Positions 49,164-62,364 of a stretch of DNA of 64,000 nucleotides are shown here, piece after piece. How positions within the stretch are numbered: the stretch's first letter is position 1; each line of letters starts with the position of its first letter. The notes below the pieces were generated by a model. It was not told the DNA's origin and made no database searches. It saw only the letters and a program-made list of their open reading frames with translations. The stretch comes from Euglena gracilis (Eukaryota): assembly GCA_039621445.1 (NCBI GenBank), contig CP154954.1:1-64000 (forward strand), written 5' to 3'. The position numbers were made by a program, and so were the translations under genes.

Positions 49164-54727
<5,564 letters not shown>

Positions 54728-54916
54728 ATTTTAATAATAAAATAAAAATTATATTCGAAAAATCACTTTACAGTTATTTATAGATAATTTACATTATTAT
54801 TAATAAGTTTTGCTACTAATTTTTGTCTATTTGAGGTCTAAAAATATAATACTCACGTTTAGTTTCTTTTACTCTAGATAAGTCAGTTACGTTAGTTTCA
54901 CAGTCAATATACGTAT

Positions 54917-55126
54917 CTACGATAATACACCATATGGCTTCAGCTTCTCAAGTAAAGAATAACTAATATCCTCCACAGTAAATGAAGATGAAACTTTATT
55001 ATACATCAAAAATATGTTTTTAGCCGCTAAACGGAACGCAACTTTTTGCCTCACCTTACGGGACACGTCTGTTTCTATTGTGTAATTTTTTAACCTTTCA
55101 TTTAATATATCTTTTTTACGTACCAT
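54917..55126 (-). pseudogene. Truncated Rep N-terminal fragment
   Basis: FRLAAKNIFLMY matches geminivirus-type RCR motif I context FRLxAKNxFLTY; stops before motif II. Confidence 0.7.
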
Positions 55127-55471
55127 AGTAGTTTTCCTTGAATAATGTATTATTTTTTGCTTATTTCCCGTACATAGTATCTTAAATAGGAGTTGTATGC
55201 AGTCGTATTTAACGATTTACATGTTACATCCCTTTAATTGTAAAGAATTCTCATTACTTTTCATACACATAGTTCAAAACCGTTTGCCTGAGGCAGATTA
55301 CATTTATTTAGTAATAATATCATGTGAGTGACTTTTTTAAGTTATTAGTGCAATATTGTGATTGTGTTATTGCGTGGTTAATGTTTACAAAACCATACCC
55401 CGTTTTGTCAGTAACGACCGAGAATTTGCTAAGTAAATTGCCCCCTAATAATAATAATAATATAATAATAA

Positions 55472-55513
55472 GTTAATAGATTAATAATAGGTTAATAGAT
55501 TAATAATAGGTTA
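55472..55513. repeat. 19-bp tandem repeat (GTTAATAGATTAATAATAG x2.2) after a (TAA)n run
   Basis: Units at 55472-55490 and 55491-55509, partial unit to 55513. Confidence 0.9.
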
Positions 55514-55549
55514 TAACTCCAAATAAAACTAATCAAAAAATTACGTTAG

Positions 55550-55738
55550 AAAAAAGTAAAATCAAAGAAAAGTTCCTTTAATAAATTTGAAAAAAACGTT
55601 GGTAAAAACGCTAAATACCGACTGTCAGCTAGGAAAGTATTTCTTACATCTCCAAAATGCCCTTTATCTTTAGAATATGTTGCAGAATTCCTTAAATTTA
55701 GATTTATTAAAGTACGATACCATAATAAAAGGTTATAA
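55550..55738 (+). pseudogene. Truncated Rep N-terminal fragment, opposite strand, no start codon
   Basis: Translates to ...YRLSARKVFLTSPKCPLSLEYVAEFL... (compare FRLxAKNxFLTYPKCSLSKE). Confidence 0.72.
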
Positions 55739-55993
55739 AAGTTGTTCCTGCTGACCTTAAACTAAAACCAATAAAAATAACAAAAACGTGTCCACTAGGA
55801 TTTTATTCTCGGTGAACTTTAAAAAAGTTAATAACATTTTAATAACAACTAGCTAACTAAATTATTTATATTTTTAATTAAATAATTTTATAATAATTAT
55901 ACTAATAATAACAATTTAATAACAAACGTGTCCACTAGAATTTTATTCTTGGTGGACTTTAAAAAATTTTAATGGAATAATATAATAACTTAA

Positions 55994-56818
55994 TTATTTA
56001 TTAGTTATATTATCTAGTAACATACTAAGTAAAATATATAAGAAGTTCAAAGACCCAGTATATTCTCTTAAAAATAATGGCGATTCGTTGATAAATTTGA
56101 TTTTATATTTGGAAGGAATTTCATATTTTGTATGCTGATATATTTTAATTTCAGCTAATTGATTTTTTTTATTTGCTTTTAGCAAAAGGTTATTAAGAAC
56201 ATAACAAAAACAAAGACCTCCTAGTTTTGGTACGTTTGATATATTTAAAATTTTACCATTTTTAATAGTAGAAAAAAAGCTTTCAACTAAATTTTTAGTC
56301 CATACTCTTTTTTCATCAAATATCACATATATATTTAAATATAGCTGTGATTTTACTGCTTTACATTCTAATTTTAGATATGTCTCTTGAAGAATTTTAT
56401 CTTTGGAATCAGTATGTATTAATATTACAGGTTCTACCGAATACATTATCCATAGAATATCTTCACTTGTAATTAAATTAAGAAAATCTCTTATAAGGCT
56501 AGTATTAAAACTATCACATACGAAAATCTCAATTTTTAATTTTACAAAAAAAACGTTATTTTCATTGCTATAAAACTTAGTTAAACTAAACGAAACAAAT
56601 TTTATTTTTTTGTATGATTTTCTTACGTTCGTTAAGTTAACATTTTCATTCAATCTATTTTGAAAAGAACGTTTAACAGAATTTATTGTATTATCTGTAA
56701 GTGATTTATTAGTAATTATATTATAAATTTCTCCTTGATTAATATCGTCAATATTTTTATTTTGCCACGGTTTAATTGATTTATATAAAAATTGTTTAAG
56801 GATTCTATCAATAGACAT
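55994..56818 (-). CDS. Hypothetical protein, 274 aa
   Basis: Long uninterrupted ORF in very AT-rich DNA, 17 nt downstream of the 295-aa ORF. Confidence 0.7.
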   Translation of the reverse strand: MSIDRILKQFLYKSIKPWQNKNIDDINQGEIYNIITNKSLTDNTINSVKRSFQNRLNENVNLTNVRKSYKKIKFVSFSLTKFYSNENNVFFVKLKIEIFVCDSFNTSLIRDFLNLITSEDILWIMYSVEPVILIHTDSKDKILQETYLKLECKAVKSQLYLNIYVIFDEKRVWTKNLVESFFSTIKNGKILNISNVPKLGGLCFCYVLNNLLLKANKKNQLAEIKIYQHTKYEIPSKYKIKFINESPLFLREYTGSLNFLYILLSMLLDNITNK

Positions 56819-56835
56819 CCAATTAAAATACCACT

Positions 56836-57723
56836 CTATTTCATTATTGTTCTTTTTTTTTTATAAGTACAAATAAAAACATCCGAATATTTTGGTTTAC
56901 TTTGAGAATTTAAAATATTTATTTCTAGAATTAATAATTCTAAAATATAATTGCAAAATAAATCTCTTATTTTTTTCCCTTTATTGTTAATATTTATTAA
57001 ATCCTCACACTTTTTTGTATATTTTTCGGTTATTGCTAAAAATTCTGAATCCTCGAAAAAGCTCTTAATTTCAAATTGTTTTTCTTTTTTTATTTCTATT
57101 TTTTCTATTTCTTCGTCATTATCGATTTTTTTTGCTAAAACAGTTTTTCTTTTTTCTTTATCAATCTCTTCCGGACCTTTTTTTAAAACTTCAAGGAAAA
57201 TTTTAGGTAGAAAATAATTTCCCCTTGCTTTCTCAATTAAATTATATTGAGTAATAAATTTAAAACTTAAACAGTTATTATTTTTAGATTCATAGCGCGG
57301 TATTCTATTCCAAAAAAGTTCCTCTTCGGGGTCTCGGCAATTAATAATAAAACCACCAACATTGCCAGGACTATCCCCTTTAGCTTTTTCGATACTTATA
57401 ATTGTATTTTTATCAAAACTAAACAAGTCTTCTAAATATTTTGGCCGACAATTTTTCTTTAGTTCGAGGTAAGCTTTAATAAAAATATCGGTTTCTTTCT
57501 GAAAATCCACGTATTTGCATATGGTATACATAATAAAAGAAATTTTATCGTCGTTTATTATTGCATGCCATTTTTTAATAAAAGAATAATCCATTTCTAT
57601 TAAAGATTGAAAATTTGTCCTTATTAAAATTCTCCAATTACGTGTTATATTATAACTACCATAATATCTCGAACTTGTGGTGTTAATTTTGAATTTGTAT
57701 TTTTTTCTTAATTTTTGAACCAT
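56836..57723 (-). CDS. Hypothetical protein, 295 aa
   Basis: Long ORF with GGGAG SD upstream of the ATG; Lys/Glu-rich C-terminal half. Confidence 0.72.
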   Translation of the reverse strand: MVQKLRKKYKFKINTTSSRYYGSYNITRNWRILIRTNFQSLIEMDYSFIKKWHAIINDDKISFIMYTICKYVDFQKETDIFIKAYLELKKNCRPKYLEDLFSFDKNTIISIEKAKGDSPGNVGGFIINCRDPEEELFWNRIPRYESKNNNCLSFKFITQYNLIEKARGNYFLPKIFLEVLKKGPEEIDKEKRKTVLAKKIDNDEEIEKIEIKKEKQFEIKSFFEDSEFLAITEKYTKKCEDLININNKGKKIRDLFCNYILELLILEINILNSQSKPKYSDVFICTYKKKRTIMK

Positions 57724-58073
57724 AATTATTCTCCCATAAAAAATTTGTCCAATTAACTATAACTATATTCTTTCAACAATAGTTTATTGTTGACCTACCC
57801 AATTAATTTAACGCTTAATGCTCATACAACAAATTAGCTATTTAATAACAATTTAATAACAAGTTAGCAATAAAATAAAAATTAATTTGATAATAATTAT
57901 ACTAGTAATAATATTTATAATGATTTTAATCACAACTTTATAACAAAAAATAACAAAAACGTGTCCGCTGGTATTTTATTCTCAGCGAACTTTATTTTTT
58001 TTTTTGAAGTTTTGTTTTTGAATTGTTCATTTTATTCTCCCAAAAATAATAGAGCAATAATTTTCTAAATTTT

Positions 58074-58253
58074 TTTATTCTCCGGGCGGACAGAAAAAAA
58101 AAAATTTATTAAAAAAAAATTTTAAGTTTTATTAAACTTAAAATAATTGTTAAAAAAATGCCTCATGCTTTTCAAAATTAATTCGAACTTTTGATGTCAA
58201 GAGGCATTTTTTAACAAATTAATGTTACCACTAATTTTCCGCCCTAGAATAAA
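58074..58253. repeat. Nested imperfect inverted repeat
   Basis: Outer arms TTTATTCTCCGGGCGGA / TCCGCCCTAGAATAAA. Inner arms TTGTTAAAAAAATGCCTC (58147-58164) / GAGGCATTTTTTAACAA (58201-58217). Confidence 0.85.
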
Positions 58254-58330
58254 TATAACATATTTATAACAAATAACAAATTAGTAATATTTTTATTACT
58301 AATAAAATAATAACATATAATAAAAACGTA

Positions 58331-59554
58331 TTAATTAGTATTTTTTTGATTATCATTTCCTTCATTTTCATCATTCATATTAGCTTTTTTTAAGAATTCT
58401 TGAATATAAACTTTAGTTTTACTTTCAAGTTCTCTGTATTCCTTTGATTTTTCCATTTCTGAATTATGAAAATGTGGGGGAAGTAATTTATCATCGGCAT
58501 TTAATTGATAAGGTAGTATGCCTTCCATTTCAATTCCTTTTTCTTTAAAAAATTGTTCCAAAACTTTATAAGGTTTTGACGACATTATAGCTTTTGGTAA
58601 AGCAGGAGATAAAAGTACTTTAACACTATTTTTTCGATTATGAACTTTTAACGTTGTTTCTAAAGAGTTAAATAAATTTTTTAGCTCATCTACATTTTGA
58701 TACTCTAAAATGCTAGAGTCTGAAAAAATTATCGCATCGTAATGACAAGTATTTCTAAATCGCAGTAAATCCTTAGCTTCCTTAACTACTAGAAGATAAA
58801 AGCCTTTGAATTGCAAATAAGATTCAAAAAAATCTATTAAATACCTAAGCTCACCGCCTAAAATTAAAAATACTTTATTTTCACCCATATTCAGATAAGA
58901 TTCATAAATGTCTAACATCCACCTTAAATCTCGAGGTATCACATAGTCATTAAAATTAATTTTTGCTTTAACTCCTAACCTTGTGCTTAAATATATGTTT
59001 CTAAGTCGTTTTTCAATAGCATCACCTTTATATACAAATTCAGAAGGTTTTTCTTTTTCAAACAACAACATAGCATCCGCTATCTCTCCTTTTTTTGCTA
59101 ATTCAATCATCCTTTCTTCTAATGGACAATATTCAAAATATTTACCATACTTTTTCAAAATTGATGGAGAAGCCATGAAATTTTTTGAAGCATCTACAAA
59201 GTTAAATATTTGTTTTGTTAAATAGTCCAACAAATCTTTCTCGTTATTAACTGTTTGAACATATGCACTATAAGTTTTAGAATCAACATATATATCAAAA
59301 AAATTTGCTGCCTTAGTGTCTATTTTTTTAATAAAAACGAAATATGAGTGTACATGAGGGTATCCGGTTTTATGAAACTATCTTACCAACGCATAATCAA
59401 CTAGTCCATATTTTACTTCAAATTTATTTTTAAAAAAATTTAAAATTTCTGAAAGATCTGCGGAACAATAAGAATAGGTTAAAAAAACTTTTTTTGATGA
59501 AATACGTCTCATATTATTATCAATGTTATTTTTGTTCGTATTTAATAAATTCAT
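58331..59554 (-). pseudogene. Geminivirus-like rolling-circle Rep (407 codons, single in-frame TAG at codon 59, 59378-59380)
   Basis: GGAGG SD + ATG at 59554; motif I KKVFLTYS, motif II R*FHKTGYPHVHSY, GRS-like NFFDI, motif III DYLTK; in frame with the 300-aa ORF. Confidence 0.85.
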
Positions 59555-60268
59555 AAAACCTCCCTATTTAATTTTTTATCATTTTTAAAAGACATAAAAA
59601 TTGCATTTAAATTTTTTTTAATTGCTACAAATTTTTTGATGTAGTAATCTGGCCTTTCTTTTTTTAAAAGAGATAGAGCCTTAAAAATATTGCCTTTTTC
59701 AGCTAGTTTTATCATGCGGTTCCAAAGTGACAACATTTGGTAATGATCATCTAATTTTACAGACAAACACGGACTAATTACTAACGAATCAGTAAAATCT
59801 TGTATACCATATGCTCTCTGACTTAAAACCATTTTTATTATATAATCGATAGAATATTCTTCTGACTTAGCTGCGCTATAATTTCCACAAACTGTAACCT
59901 CTTCACAGTCTTTTTTTAATCTCAAATCCAAAAAACGAGTCGAGCGCGTATCTAATCGTTTATCCACTTTAATGTAAGCATAAAAGTTAGCGGTTCTGCC
60001 TTTAAGGTAATCTCGTCCAACAATATAAGATAGTATTTTAACAATCCTTACTAGAAATAGATTTATTCGATATATATAAATTTAAAATAGATTCCATATT
60101 AATATTGTGAGATTCACAAAAAGCACGCCAAAATTCAGAATCTAAATTATATATTTTTCCTTTCTTTTTTCGTAAGGCCAAATAAGATTCTATTTGGTTT
60201 TTATTAAGAAAAGAACCTTTACCTTCAACGCTCTTTTCAAAGTTTAGATTATCATATTCGGATAACAT
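59551..60268 (-). pseudogene. Degenerate Rep paralogue (138-aa ORF extendable upstream; the overlapping 76-aa ORF is possibly its frameshifted N-terminus)
   Basis: RFLDL...GNYSAAKS...DYIIK (GRS + motif III), and ALSLLKKERPDYYIKKFVAIKKNLNAIF, which is homologous to the downstream Rep. Confidence 0.72.
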
Positions 60269-60538
60269 AACATTTTTTTTTACTTAAATTCTTGCCTAAA
60301 AGTCGAATTTTGAATTTTAATTTAATTAAATTAAAGAATAAATGAGTGAATCGAAACCAAAAACGTTTAAATCAAACTGTCAGTTTCAATACACTAACTA
60401 CACTATTTTATAGTTTAAGTAATAATATACTATAAAACAAACATAATTTTAAACTATTAATAATTGAAAAAATTTTTATTATAAAAAATCTATCAACATA
60501 AATTAAAAACGTATAATTTAATAAAACAATAAATTAAA

Positions 60539-62364
60539 CTACTTTTTAAGTTGAGTGACCTGGAATCTAGCACGTGCTTTTTTTAAATTTAAAGTTAATT
60601 CAAATTTTCTCTTAATATCTTTATTCATTTCTAAAGCATGTTTAGATGAATTATAAGAAATCTGTGCTTGTTCTACATTAATTTCGGAACCAAATTCTGC
60701 TTCATTGACTAATATAGTAACGTTATTGCTATTAATTAATGCAAAACCTCCTGTTACAACCAAACTAGTCCAATCGGAAGAAGACTTTTGACGAACTAAG
60801 ATTATACCTATATCTAATCCAGTCAATATTGGAATATTTAGATAGAAAAAAATTTATCATTAAAAATTAATAAATTAAGTTAATTTTTTCCCCAACAATA
60901 CAGTACGGGAGATTTAAATCTCATACGGCATTTAACAAAAAATCTTTTAAAATTTGCTTAAAAATTGACTAAAACTAAATTGTGATAGAATCAAAAGTAC
61001 TAAAAAAAAACAAAAATTTTGTAAATAATTTACATAAAAATACACATTCCTTACCATTGCATACAAATTTAAAAATTTTTTAGATTCAAATATTATATCT
61101 TACAAATTATGTTTATCAAGTATTGTTTTTAAAAAAATTAAAACTATTAAAAATTTTTTCTAAAACATGTAAAAACACTTTAAATAGTTATAAAATAACA
61201 GTTTAAATATATTCTTCTAAAACAAGACTTAAATATACATTTTCAAAATAAACTATAAATTATATTAATCTTAAAATTTTAAATTTTTCTTATTTATAAA
61301 AAATAATTTATAAAAAAGTAAATTTTAAATTTTAGAAAATATTCAAAGCTACCACGCACAAACAAAATGTTAATGCAGAAAATAAAAATAATTAACTAAT
61401 ATGGTTAAAAGTAAAAGTAAAGTTAAATCTCAAACAAGCATTTATCAAAAAATTATAATTAATAAAATTAACAAACGTTTTAATAATGTGTCACACATGG
61501 TCTTTAAGAACCCCCATCTGACCACTTAAAGTAGGAAGAATAATTTCTTCAACTCGTTTTTCCCAAAAAACTCTTTCAGGAATAAGTAAAGTAGAAAATA
61601 TAAATTCAATTTTGAAAATTTTATTCACAAACTAAACAAAAATTGTTGATTTATTTAGCTTTTCAACATACTATCGCAAAAAAGGTTAGGTTGTTTTATA
61701 TTATATAAAACTCTAAAACAAGACTTATTAAAACTAAAATGTAAAATTTTCTTTAGAATAAAAATTTATAGAAAATTAAATTAAAACCTATTCTCTTTGC
61801 TTTTATTGGTCTACTAAAATAATAAATAAATTTCAATTACCAAAAAATAAAATAATTTTACTTTTCATACAGAAAAGTTTAAAAAAGAGAATAAAATCCC
61901 CAAAAACGAAAATTATTTAAAAAATTAACTTTTGAAAAATAAATACTCAAGAAAAAAGATTTAAACTAGAATTTAATGAAAAAAGAAATATATTAGCGAA
62001 CTAAAATTTCTCTTAAAAAACTGTACAAGTAAAAAAAAACATACAGCTTAAACATTTAATTTTAAATAAAAATATGTCAAAAGTTTATTCTTTATTAAAA
62101 AAAAATCCAAAATAAAACCTATTTACGTTCTACTTGAAAAATTACTAAACTTATTAACAAATTATTGAAAATATTAAGATTAACCAATTAGATTAACCAA
62201 TTTTTTAATTAATATGAATAGCCAAAAACATACAATTTAAGGAAAATTTACTTAACTTAAAAAAAACACATAAATAAAATTTTATTTCTTATCTTTTATT
62301 TTAACTTATACCTAATAAACTAAAAGCAACTTCGTAACGTACTAATTGATACATCTAATGTCAT
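60539..62364 (-). CDS. atpE: ATP synthase CF1 epsilon; exons ~62343-62364, 61497-61585, 60539-60833
   Basis: MTLDVSI|.IPERVFWEKRVEEIILPTLSGQMGVLKDH|IPILTGLDIG... Confidence 0.93.

Follow-up and report, generated by a model that had tools for sequence, protein, structure and literature searches.

The window analysed in this study is a 64-kb stretch of a euglenoid chloroplast genome, in which rbcL and atpE are separated by a spacer of 5.8 kb. The stretch 54730–60535 is flanked by pieces of rbcL, atpE, and atpB, all on the minus strand, and holds Rep-like sequences, two long open frames, three hairpins, a tandem repeat, and a nested palindrome (Table 1). The initial annotation described this island as devoid of plastid housekeeping genes and recognisable introns. 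Consistent with this, ARAGORN found no tRNA in 52000–62000, and the Rfam matches at E ≤ 1 were two overlapping weak group II intron matches (60836–60939) in the atpE intron, outside the island. The GC content of the Rep copies (0.27–0.30) and of the other two frames (0.22–0.24) is plastid-like, and the composition of the island resembles that of its flanks. At least half of the sampled words of the island were present in 20 runs from 12 studies.

Table 1 Features of the rbcL–atpE spacer and its flanks (positions in the window).
Feature	Position	Strand	Remarks
rbcL exon	52080–52496	-	Pfam RuBisCO_large
rbcL start codon	~54729	-	
Rep fragment C	54917–55126	-	69-codon ORF; family HMM E = 2.3e-5, positions 8–51
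HMM segment, fragment C	54920–55216	-	E = 2.3e-5
Tandem repeat (iteron-like)	55446–55513	+	19 nt x 3.7; TRF score 92, 90% matches
Rep fragment D	55550–55738	+	family HMM E = 1.2e-8, positions 7–47
HMM segment, fragment D	55550–55735	+	E = 1.2e-8
Hairpin copy 1	55785–55817	.	core AACGTGTCC..ATTTTATTCT..GAAC; weak fold
Hairpin copy 2	55925–55957	.	37 nt 3′ of the orf274 stop, minus strand
orf274	55994–56818	-	open frame
orf295	56836–57723	-	open frame, basic N-terminus
Hairpin copy 3	57958–57990	.	between palindrome and orf295
Nested palindrome	~58074–58253	.	outer GC-rich stem, two inner hairpins; 3′ of copy A
Rep copy A	58331–59554	-	407 codons, near full-length, one in-frame TAG
HMM segment, copy A downstream of TAG	58334–59377	-	E = 3e-55
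HMM segment, copy A upstream of TAG	59381–59563	-	E = 7e-14
Rep copy B	59551–60048	-	26% identical to copy A over 149 aa (BLASTP E = 2e-15)
HMM segment, copy B	59554–60081	-	E = 3.3e-34
76-codon ORF	60038–60268	-	upstream of copy B, different frame
atpE	60539–60826	-	

A family HMM was built from 94 outside homologues of 300–600 aa, with zero window sequences among them, and run over the six-frame translation of the window, split at stops into segments of 15 aa or more. Five significant segments were obtained in the 64 kb, all within the spacer, and the next best one anywhere in the window reached only E = 0.82. With stops read as X, the four Rep pieces matched the family HMM at E = 3e-73, 2e-34, 9e-9, and 5e-6. 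When single ORFs were scanned alone against Pfam, none of eight exceeded the cut-off; copy A read through with X did so for Gemini_AL1 (32.2 bits versus a cut-off of 24, E = 1.2e-7). The Rep identity of the pieces is thus statistically solid, and the stretch is shown to contain four fragments of an HUH Rep gene of the geminivirus type (Gemini_AL1). Four Rep N-termini had been proposed here. All four pieces are Rep-like, but only two of them, fragments C and D, come from the N-terminus; HMM positions 5–388 are covered by copy A and positions 48–190 by copy B, which lacks motif I.

The match of copy A to the family HMM (i-E 3.2e-73) spans the nuclease domain, the central domain, and a dead helicase. 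Five solved nuclease domains of geminivirus-type Reps matched copy A at E = 2.7e-6 to 5.6e-4. In the alignment, copy A retains the central domain together with motifs I (FLTYSYC), II (HVH), and III (YLTK) and has lost all four helicase motifs (Walker A, Walker B, motif C, and the arginine finger); its Walker A site reads GGELRY, and in 16 full-length relatives it reads GxxGxGK[ST]. The in-frame TAG (59378–59380) is at codon 59, a position shortly ahead of motif II at which a Glu is conserved among relatives. A 58-aa ORF ending at this TAG is on record on eight contigs (P0016), and the stop is therefore real. It cuts the nuclease domain off the long frame, which has 300 codons after the TAG; copy A includes 348 stop-free codons.

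The TGA stop of copy B and the ATG of copy A overlap in an ATGA. Copy B spans only the part that starts ahead of motif II and finishes with the central domain; motif I is absent, the HUH histidines are lost (NFYAY), and motif III is kept (YIIK). It had no match in Pfam. The 76-codon ORF upstream of copy B had no Pfam match, was absent from the family HMM matches at E ≤ 10, and had a best phmmer E of 0.76. In fragment C, 54920–55057 aligns to the Rep motif I region, with FLMY replacing FLTY. With stops as X, its i-E against the family HMM was 5.2e-6; no Pfam match was obtained at E ≤ 10, BLASTP against copy A gave only E = 2.4, and nothing Rep-like was found downstream of it. Fragment D, the only plus-strand Rep piece, comprises the motif I region only (VFLTSPKC). 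It resembles the N-terminus of copy A (BLASTP E = 7e-6, 35% over 48 aa), and its Pfam Gemini_AL1 match (E = 0.082) was under the cut-off. The Rep copies are visibly broken, copy A by a stop codon and the loss of its helicase motifs and the other three by truncation.

orf274 and orf295 had been described as two intact ORFans. Both far exceed chance length, and neither has a family. Among 300 shuffles of the island, the longest stop-free run was 171 codons. With ca. 9.6% of random codons expected to be stops, the probability that frames of 274, 295, and 348 codons are open is 1e-12 to 5e-16 (ca. 9e-13 for orf274). orf274 showed no Pfam match and a best phmmer E of 0.69 against the ORFs of the relatives' contigs, and its AF2 model (pLDDT 42.6) is unusable. 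orf295 (pLDDT 32.9) had no Pfam match and no homologue at E ≤ 0.01, and its best Atlas score was 0.79, at chance level. Residues 214–279 of orf295 weakly resemble the part of a minicircle Rep around Walker A (pairwise E = 0.002; 0.053 in a small database), a resemblance without backing from hhalign (probability 0.2). Both frames probably arrived as cargo of the element or elements that brought the Rep copies.

The hairpin pattern had three matches in the window versus none in 100 shuffles. RNA folding gave −13.3 (plus strand) and −11.3 (minus strand) kcal/mol for copy 2 (z ~ −3.5) and −12.1 kcal/mol for copy 3 on the minus strand (z = −3.8). The hairpins had been called covarying. The hairpins themselves are real; in the three copies 23 of 24 cells pair and two pairs have changed on both sides, but the covariation is not significant because 95 of 500 shuffles reach this value with n = 3 sequences. 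Copies 2 and 3 bracket a 2.0-kb orf295–orf274 cassette (2033 nt start to start) and have flanking similarity over ca. 110–150 nt. Read on the minus strand, each hairpin lies 3′ of a gene and has the T-run ACGTTTTT after it; a role at transcript 3′ ends therefore fits equally well. The hairpins may represent either former origins or just the 3′ ends of transcripts.

The iteron-like repeat (repeat families D3 and D10) was confirmed by TRF as a tandem repeat; this candidate iteron starts some 80 nt ahead of the motif I part of fragment D. The palindrome also held up: DNA folding of 58040–58260 gave −36.6 kcal/mol, compared with −18.8 on average for shuffles (z = −5.2), and none of 200 shuffles folded as well. 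No canonical origin nonanucleotide was enriched in the window (TANTATTAC occurred 15 times versus 9.7 expected, a count reached by 11 of 100 shuffles). The hairpin loops are unlike those of relatives and match no known nick site. Assigning the hairpins, repeats, and palindrome as origin parts therefore goes beyond the evidence, given the lack of an enriched nonanucleotide and the equally fitting 3′-end reading.

At E ≤ 1e-3, a phmmer search of 1.84 billion representatives with copy A yielded 355 proteins, of which 77 passed E ≤ 1e-10; among the full-length matches, the best one (E = 1.3e-43) was 32% identical over residues 16–392. Gemini_AL1 was above the cut-off in all ten relatives tested. 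The nearest intact relatives are on circular contigs of 1.3–4.3 kb, their circularity judged from end repeats of the assembled contigs, and on mitochondrial contigs. Rep is the sole ORF of at least 100 aa on L002 (1637-nt unit), L005 (1337), L007 (1814), and L008 (1452); a scan at 70 aa added an antisense ORF of 75–78 aa inside Rep on L002 and L008. The extra ORFs on L003 (~1397), L004 (2455), L032 (~3110), and L020 (4317) belong to no Pfam family. These uncultured circles (L002–L005, L007, L008, L020, and L032; P0004–P0006) encode nearly full-length matches (≤34% identity, E down to 1.3e-43) and have a common clade and central domain consensus with the island. Unlike the island, they are free, their Walker A, Walker B, and arginine finger are intact, and several of their Reps have long basic N-terminal extensions, including RGRP.

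A tree of 51 rows was constructed, drawn from Reps other than those of named geminiviruses, red-algal plasmids, and Phytophthora mitochondria. A 42-row clade (SH-aLRT 96) contained copies A and B, the circles, and mitochondrial copies, among them Reps on the uncultured contigs L025 and L028 (COX2, cytochrome b). Two capsid-bearing CRESS viruses and one phytoplasma plasmid fell outside it. Copies A and B (26% identical) are not sisters, and from their sequences either one integration with amplification or several integrations may account for them. The close relatives P0007 (89% identity over residues 108–196) and P0008 (73%), each encoded on a single 1379-nt JGI contig, are broken differently from copy A; P0022 is 56% identical. 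In the close relative, a break between residues 196 and 213 divides the gene into two short products. The loss of Walker A is common to copy A and P0008, and thus the copy A frame stayed open after the helicase died. The more distant relatives L001 (circular, 2590-nt unit) and L010 carry a capsid gene and a TAATATTAC stem-loop and are true viruses.

Foreign plasmid DNA has reportedly been found in diatom plastomes (PMC3971590). Copy A resembles the Reps of geminiviruses and genomoviruses (PF00799; 6q1m, 7vg8, and 1l2m) in its HUH motifs (I, FLTY; II, HxH; III, YxxK), in aligning over 98–106 residues to solved nuclease domains, and in the domain order of nuclease, central domain, and SF3 helicase. 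In contrast to those Reps, identity is ca. 25–30%, the island is not in a virus and falls in the separate 42-row clade, and copy A has destroyed helicase motifs and an interrupted frame. No capsid gene, movement gene, or TAATATTAC origin was found in the island. According to Liu et al. 2011 (PMC3198968), Phytophthora mitochondria hold a truncated Gemini_AL1 Rep related to those of red-algal (Porphyra/Pyropia) plasmids, interpreted as an integrated plasmid. Both cases concern a truncated Gemini_AL1 Rep within an organelle genome; the former is in an oomycete mitochondrion, whereas a euglenoid plastid here has four pieces and extra ORFs in one spacer. The parts of Lee et al. 2016 (PMC4814812) drawn on here describe plasmid-derived genes of other kinds in red-algal plastids, e.g. 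a DNA polymerase B-like domain. Foreign plasmid genes are likewise lodged and decaying in plastid DNA in that case, but those parts mention neither a geminivirus-type plastid Rep nor Euglena. The phytoplasma plasmid pPLLHn-1 (NC_019290), which we infer to belong to pCRESS9, a group of Kazlauskas et al. 2019 (PMC6668415), also carries a geminivirus-like Rep with nuclease and helicase. However, its match is marginal (tblastn E = 0.7, 25% over residues 17–114), and it lies on a long branch outside the island's clade. We found no literature report of Rep relics in this plastid spacer.

The nearest intact relatives are on tiny circular DNAs; therefore, a small plasmid- or virus-like DNA very likely once entered the plastid genome. 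We consider it very likely that the spacer is a graveyard of at least one small Rep rolling-circle replicon, most likely a capsid-less plasmid, that integrated and then decayed. The Rep identity, the broken copies, and the small free circular relatives bear out the initial annotation, which had inferred integrated and decayed ssDNA plasmids or viruses. A plasmid fits better than a virus because no capsid-like gene was found. That the island is an integrated CRESS-DNA virus, with one ORFan as a diverged capsid gene, is improbable, although L001 and L010 are capsid-bearing and orf295 has a basic start, a trait shared by many CRESS capsids. In the tree, the island Reps group with capsid-less circles and away from the two capsid-bearing viruses; no ORF on the relatives' contigs matches orf274 or orf295 (best E 0.69 and 0.053, respectively), and the low-confidence models of these two frames, too poor to use, are mostly helical rather than jelly-roll. 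Chance resemblance in AT-rich DNA or mis-assembled foreign DNA has a negligible probability. Such an artefact would fit the lack of Pfam matches by single ORFs, but it is refuted by the E-values from a profile free of window sequences, with nothing else below 0.8, by the island words in 20 runs of 12 studies, and by the flank-like composition.

The initial annotation suggested that Rep replicons may still replicate in the plastid, which goes beyond the evidence, as the 64-kb window has no intact Rep; nothing in the window is now able to start rolling-circle replication alone. Free Rep plasmids of the clade that still replicate in the plastid and release the cassette in trans from two origins are highly improbable. 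The two bracketing hairpins with similar flanks, and their two stem positions changed on both sides, would suit such release, for which an origin–cargo–origin layout is required, as is established for geminivirus replicons. Against this stand the lack of an intact Rep, a loop that is not a known nick site, the non-significant covariation, and the T-run after hairpins 3′ of genes, which suits an RNA 3′ end too. It is unlikely, though less so, that the long frames (copy A after the stop, orf295, and orf274) form a domesticated module, still expressed and under selection for a role in the plastid that no longer calls for nuclease or ATPase activity, e.g. putative DNA binding via the central oligomerisation domain. 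Three frames open far beyond the shuffle maximum, a copy A frame still open after helicase death, and the best conservation in the central domain (as in P0007) point this way. However, a close relative's gene is split into two short products, no family or fold was found for the three frames, and the TAG leaves the long frame without the nuclease domain.

Under the preferred reading of integrated and decayed replicons, the donor would have been a rolling-circle replicon active in the plastid, or at least with access to it, and may have entered by illegitimate or Rep-mediated recombination. The tandem B–A layout and the two stray N-terminal pieces would then stem from rearrangement or repeated integration, and the DNA would since have drifted to a plastid-like base composition. 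A graveyard leaves unexplained that the frames of the island are much longer than neutral decay in DNA of 24% GC would leave. Since they lie far above the shuffle maximum, some of the island genes may still be under selection.

Translation placed the start of rbcL (MSPQTETKT) at about 54729 on the minus strand, and Pfam confirmed the last atpE exon on the other side. Therefore, the stretch 54730–60535 (the island) is exactly the rbcL–atpE spacer. The window consists of plastid DNA with intron-split genes; atpB pieces near the spacer were also confirmed by Pfam, and all genes around the spacer lie on the minus strand. No tRNA, rRNA, or Pfam plastid family was found in the island, in agreement with the initial annotation, which described it as free of plastid housekeeping genes. 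Weak Rfam matches to group II introns [60836–60939(−), 26.4 bits against a gathering score of 40] adjoin the last atpE exon on its upstream side and fit the intron-rich flanks, in contrast with the intron-free island. The GC content of the spacer (0.19–0.29) is similar to that of the flanks; it is 0.27–0.30 in the Rep copies, 0.22–0.24 in the two ORFans (orf274 and orf295), and 0.26–0.41 in the contigs carrying relatives. Words of the island were present in 20 runs from 12 studies, indicating that the island belongs stably to this DNA, and none of the runs listed with island words was an RNA run. The chloroplast genome of E. gracilis is annotated with three hypothetical frames (281, 295, and 274 codons).

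When each ORF was scanned separately against Pfam, none of the eight ORFs reached the cut-off, and the best relevant match was Gemini_AL1 (E=0.082) at 55550–55738(+) in fragment D. This single-ORF scan missed the Rep gene because a stop splits it. We used the product of copy A with the stop read as X (P0001), and it exceeded the Gemini_AL1 cut-off of 24 bits with a score of 32.2 (E=1.2e-7), its residues 17–115 aligning to profile positions 2–101 of 113. P0001 also matched five solved nuclease domains of geminivirus-type Reps (E=2.7e-6 to 5.6e-4). These Pfam and structure matches are the independent tests for copy A. In a HMMER search of 1.84 billion representatives with P0001, E≤1e-3 was reached by 355 proteins, the window's own pieces included; 77 of these reached ≤1e-10, and 8 reached ≤1e-30. 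The best outside full-length match was P0004, a protein of 450 aa that is 32% identical over residues 16–392 (E=1.3e-43), and Gemini_AL1 scored above its cut-off in all 10 relatives tested. A word-based homologue search with copy A returned only the window's own products, among them the 281-aa product, and two close fragments.

We built a family HMM from 94 homologues of 300–600 aa, none from the window, and ran it on all stop-to-stop segments of at least 15 aa in the six frames of the whole window. Five segments were significant, each inside the spacer, and the next best segment in the window had E=0.82. Since the profile was built from matches to copy A, it is not independent for copy A but is independent for copy B and fragments C and D, each of which falls below the Gemini_AL1 cut-off when scanned by itself. 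Reading stops as X joined copy A into a single domain (HMM positions 5–388; i-E 3.2e-73), and no additional Rep piece appeared in the window (best extra i-E 0.055, at 57674–57793). The six-frame profile search proposed in the initial annotation thus recovered Rep sequence at all four of the places it had named. Its description of all four as resembling a Rep N-terminus holds for fragments C and D, whereas copy A is a near-complete Rep and copy B the middle part of one.

Features of the rbcL–atpE spacer and its borders in the order of their positions
Feature	Position	Strand	Evidence
rbcL exon	52080–52496	−	Pfam
Fragment C	54920–55216	−	Family HMM, E=2.3e-5, HMM positions 8–51
19-nt tandem repeat	55446–55513		
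Fragment D	55550–55735	+	Family HMM, E=1.2e-8, HMM positions 7–47
Hairpin copy 1	55785–55817		
Hairpin copy 2	55925–55957		
orf274	55994–56818	−	
orf295	56836–57723	−	
Hairpin copy 3	57958–57990		
Nested palindrome	about 58074–58253		
Copy A after TAG	58334–59377	−	Family HMM, E=3e-55, HMM positions 59–385
Copy A before TAG	59381–59563	−	Family HMM, E=7e-14, HMM positions 4–57
Copy B	59554–60081	−	Family HMM, E=3.3e-34, HMM positions 48–190
atpE last exon	60539–60826	−	Pfam

The state of each copy was read from an alignment with 16 full-length relatives. Copy A is a single frame of 407 codons (59554 to 58331) that is interrupted once, by a TAG at codon 59, the site of a Glu conserved ahead of motif II in the relatives. 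A 58-aa product ending at this TAG is recorded on eight contigs, so the stop is not a one-off sequencing error. FLTYSYC, HVH, and YLTK occur in order, aligned with the relatives' nuclease motifs; they are motifs I (FLTY), II (HxH), and III (YxxK), respectively. The central domain is also well conserved. The helicase positions of copy A read GGELRY at Walker A (GxxGxGK[ST] in the full-length relatives), FSDS at Walker B (FDD), SSK at motif C (N), and EMEG at the arginine finger (RR). None of the four signatures of an SF3 helicase (Walker A GxxxxGK[ST], Walker B, the Asn of motif C, and the arginine finger) is left in copy A. Copy B (26% identity to copy A; E=2e-15) has lost the HUH histidines (NFYAY), retains only motif III, and stops after the central domain. 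Its TGA overlaps the ATG of copy A (ATGA, 59551–59554), a layout typical of coupled genes that here links a truncated Rep copy to a near-complete one. Fragments C and D are N-terminal stubs with motif I only, and the helicase part is absent from them as from copy B. Fragment D might be the displaced N-terminus of copy B, as the two look complementary in the HMM positions they cover (7–47 and 48–190), but the same 'I..Y' stretch is seemingly present in both. None of the copies has an uninterrupted reading frame, copy A carrying the TAG and the other three being truncated. None of the window's pieces is able to serve as a full initiator-helicase.

A quick maximum-likelihood tree (HMM columns 1–200, 51 rows, SH-aLRT support only) grouped copies A and B with the circular and mitochondrial relatives described below in a clade of 42 rows (SH-aLRT 96), outside which fell the Rep of a phytoplasma plasmid and those of two viruses with capsid genes. 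Copy A paired with P0022, a fragment 56% identical to it (SH-aLRT 99). Copy B was not sister to copy A, and its position was without resolution. Both a single integration with later duplication and repeated integration fit these data. Two closer protein fragments, P0007 and P0008, are 89% and 73% identical to residues 108–196 and 213–312 of copy A, respectively. Each comes from a single JGI contig 1379 nt long, and the two contigs are probably identical. Walker A is destroyed in P0008 as well (GSEHRY), so the helicase died before the lineages of the island and of P0007/P0008 parted. The P0007/P0008 gene is split between residues 196 and 213, and decay is separate in the two lineages after their parting.

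Loci of the relatives were obtained with a locus scan using an alignment of six closer rows, one of the scans used; the metagenome scan with copy A itself gave 106 pattern matches, of which none was confirmed. The nearest intact Reps lie on short uncultured contigs of 1.3–4.3 kb with repeated ends, and we took these contigs as circular because repeated ends are the assembly signature of circles. In four of them (L002, L005, L007, and L008, with units of 1637, 1337, 1814, and 1452 nt, respectively), Rep is the sole ORF of at least 100 aa; with a cut-off of 70 aa, L002 and L008 show an extra antisense ORF of 75–78 aa within Rep. Four others (L003, about 1397 nt; L004, 2455 nt; L032, about 3110 nt; L020, 4317 nt) carry extra ORFs without a Pfam family. 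In L002, L003, L005, L007, and L008 (about 1.3–1.8 kb), the sole sizeable gene encodes a Gemini_AL1-type Rep whose helicase is intact, and there is no capsid gene. A TAATATTAC-type site lies upstream of Rep in L007 and L008, and the hairpin loop of L002 differs. On two uncultured mitochondrial contigs (L025:181–2453 and L028:173–3601), COX2 and cytochrome b identified by Pfam adjoin Gemini_AL1 Reps, two of which stand in tandem in L025. At a greater distance (identity of about 25%) stand typical CRESS viruses such as L001 and L010, which have both a capsid gene and a stem-loop with TAATATTAC. Judged from these contig sequences, the donor clade also occurs as free small circles and mitochondrial inserts. 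As in a plasmid insert, the homologues of the island are on free small replicons, and none is among organelle housekeeping genes.

Long Lys/Arg-rich N-terminal extensions with AT-hook-like RGRP(K) cores were observed in the intact relatives P0005, P0006, P0010, and P0013 and in the Rep of L032; the plastid Rep copies are without them. L032 itself, a Rep-bearing circle (about 3.1 kb) with 37% identity to P0004, comes from a MAG labelled as an uncultured proteobacterium. Since it is the sole match among 185,579 species genomes, it was probably binned there as a passenger and is unlikely to be a plasmid of the bacterium.

The two ORFans are real long frames, as had been proposed, with a probability of staying open of about 1e-12 to 1e-13 and lengths beyond the shuffle maximum of 171 codons. 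Searches of Pfam, the Atlas, and homologues gave no family or relative for either; the best Atlas score (0.79) was at chance level, and the homologue search with orf295 returned none. AF2 models made without an alignment had pLDDT values of 32.9 (orf295) and 42.6 (orf274), neither being usable. Residues 214–279 of orf295 (56887–57084) weakly resemble the Walker A neighbourhood of the L003 Rep (pairwise E=0.002), a likeness that may be due to chance or may mark a fifth remnant of Rep in very advanced decay. With an hhalign probability of 0.2 and no family-HMM match, we rejected orf295 as a hidden Rep remnant for now.

The hairpin pattern matched three times in the window, always in the spacer, and never in 100 shuffles. 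Of the 'three covarying hairpins' of the initial annotation, the hairpins are therefore real and confined to the spacer, with 23 of 24 cells pairing against 25–46% in slid controls. Their covariation is only suggestive: two stem positions change on both sides, and 95 of 500 shuffles do equally well. The loop is invariant across the copies (GAATTTTATTCT or similar) and could be assigned to no known nick site. Copies 2 and 3, spaced 2033 nt apart, enclose the orf295–orf274 cassette, and their flanks share additional similarity. Read along the minus strand, every hairpin lies 3′ of a gene and has ACGTTTTT after it; a role at mRNA 3′ ends is at least as likely as one as an origin. The nonanucleotide TANTATTAC occurs 15 times in the window against 9.7 expected (11 of 100 shuffles reach 15), never within a stem-loop of the island, and no stem-loop near Rep was found to bear the conserved nonanucleotide of an origin nick site. 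The iteron-like repeat (19 nt × 3.7, in tandem) and the nested palindrome (z=−5.2 against shuffles) noticed earlier are both present, and any role for them, as iterons or otherwise, is only putative. Scans for promoter and terminator consensus sequences gave matches at chance level.

On the plus strand, 8 of the 10 occurrences of AAAAACGT in the window lie within 54564–60512 in the spacer (binomial 1.7e-7, indicative only, as the motif was chosen post hoc), and two of them abut hairpin elements. The 92 nt directly 3′ of the copy A stop (58249–58340) and of the atpE stop (60432–60523) are 71% alike, and both end in AAAAACGT, which is ACGTTTTT on the coding strand. These two stretches may be a common 3′-end signal.

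In the literature searched, the only report of a geminivirus-type Rep in an organelle concerns Phytophthora mitochondria, where a truncated Gemini_AL1 Rep is closest to red-algal plasmids (Liu et al. 2011, PMC3198968); its main text mentions neither Euglena nor plastids or chloroplasts. Likewise, Euglena and plastids are unmentioned in the main text of Kazlauskas et al. 2019 (PMC6668415), and the accessible text of Lee et al. 2016 (PMC4814812) describes plasmid DNA in red-algal plastid genomes without mention of Euglena. The frames are not treated as Rep in the accessible text of three euglenid plastome papers (PMC9728796, PMC3534033, and PMC3308993), and the rbcL–atpE spacer is undiscussed in that of all six papers. 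Thus the literature check called for in the initial annotation found no prior Rep reading of these frames in open main texts, and no mention of a geminivirus-type Rep in a plastid genome or any euglenoid in the open literature searched. The locus might have been noticed earlier, e.g., in the supplementary Rep lists of PMC3198968 or PMC6668415.

The Rep profile matches, the broken copies, and the relatives on free circles support the proposal that a Rep-encoding plasmid or virus was integrated here and then decayed, the spacer being the relic of one or more integrated rolling-circle plasmids. The island is not autonomous at present. A more far-reaching combination would add that a capsid-less Rep-circle clade lives in protist plastids and mitochondria, that a domesticated, helicase-dead Rep and two ORFan cargo genes are selected in the euglenoid plastid, and that the hairpin-bracketed 2.0-kb cassette can be released by Rep supplied in trans; taken jointly, we consider this improbable.

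Foreign DNA is rare in plastid genomes. If the relic reading is true, rolling-circle Rep plasmids once reached a secondary green plastid with three bounding membranes, and frames that have long stood as 'hypothetical' in a classic chloroplast genome gain names. The plastid relic would be tied to an uncultured clade of small circular Rep replicons and to mitochondrial inserts, pointing to plasmids of organelles as a reservoir on which CRESS/geminivirus Reps drew in their evolution. A plastid-adapted pair of Rep and origin could have practical use as an episomal vector, and no working pair was found here.
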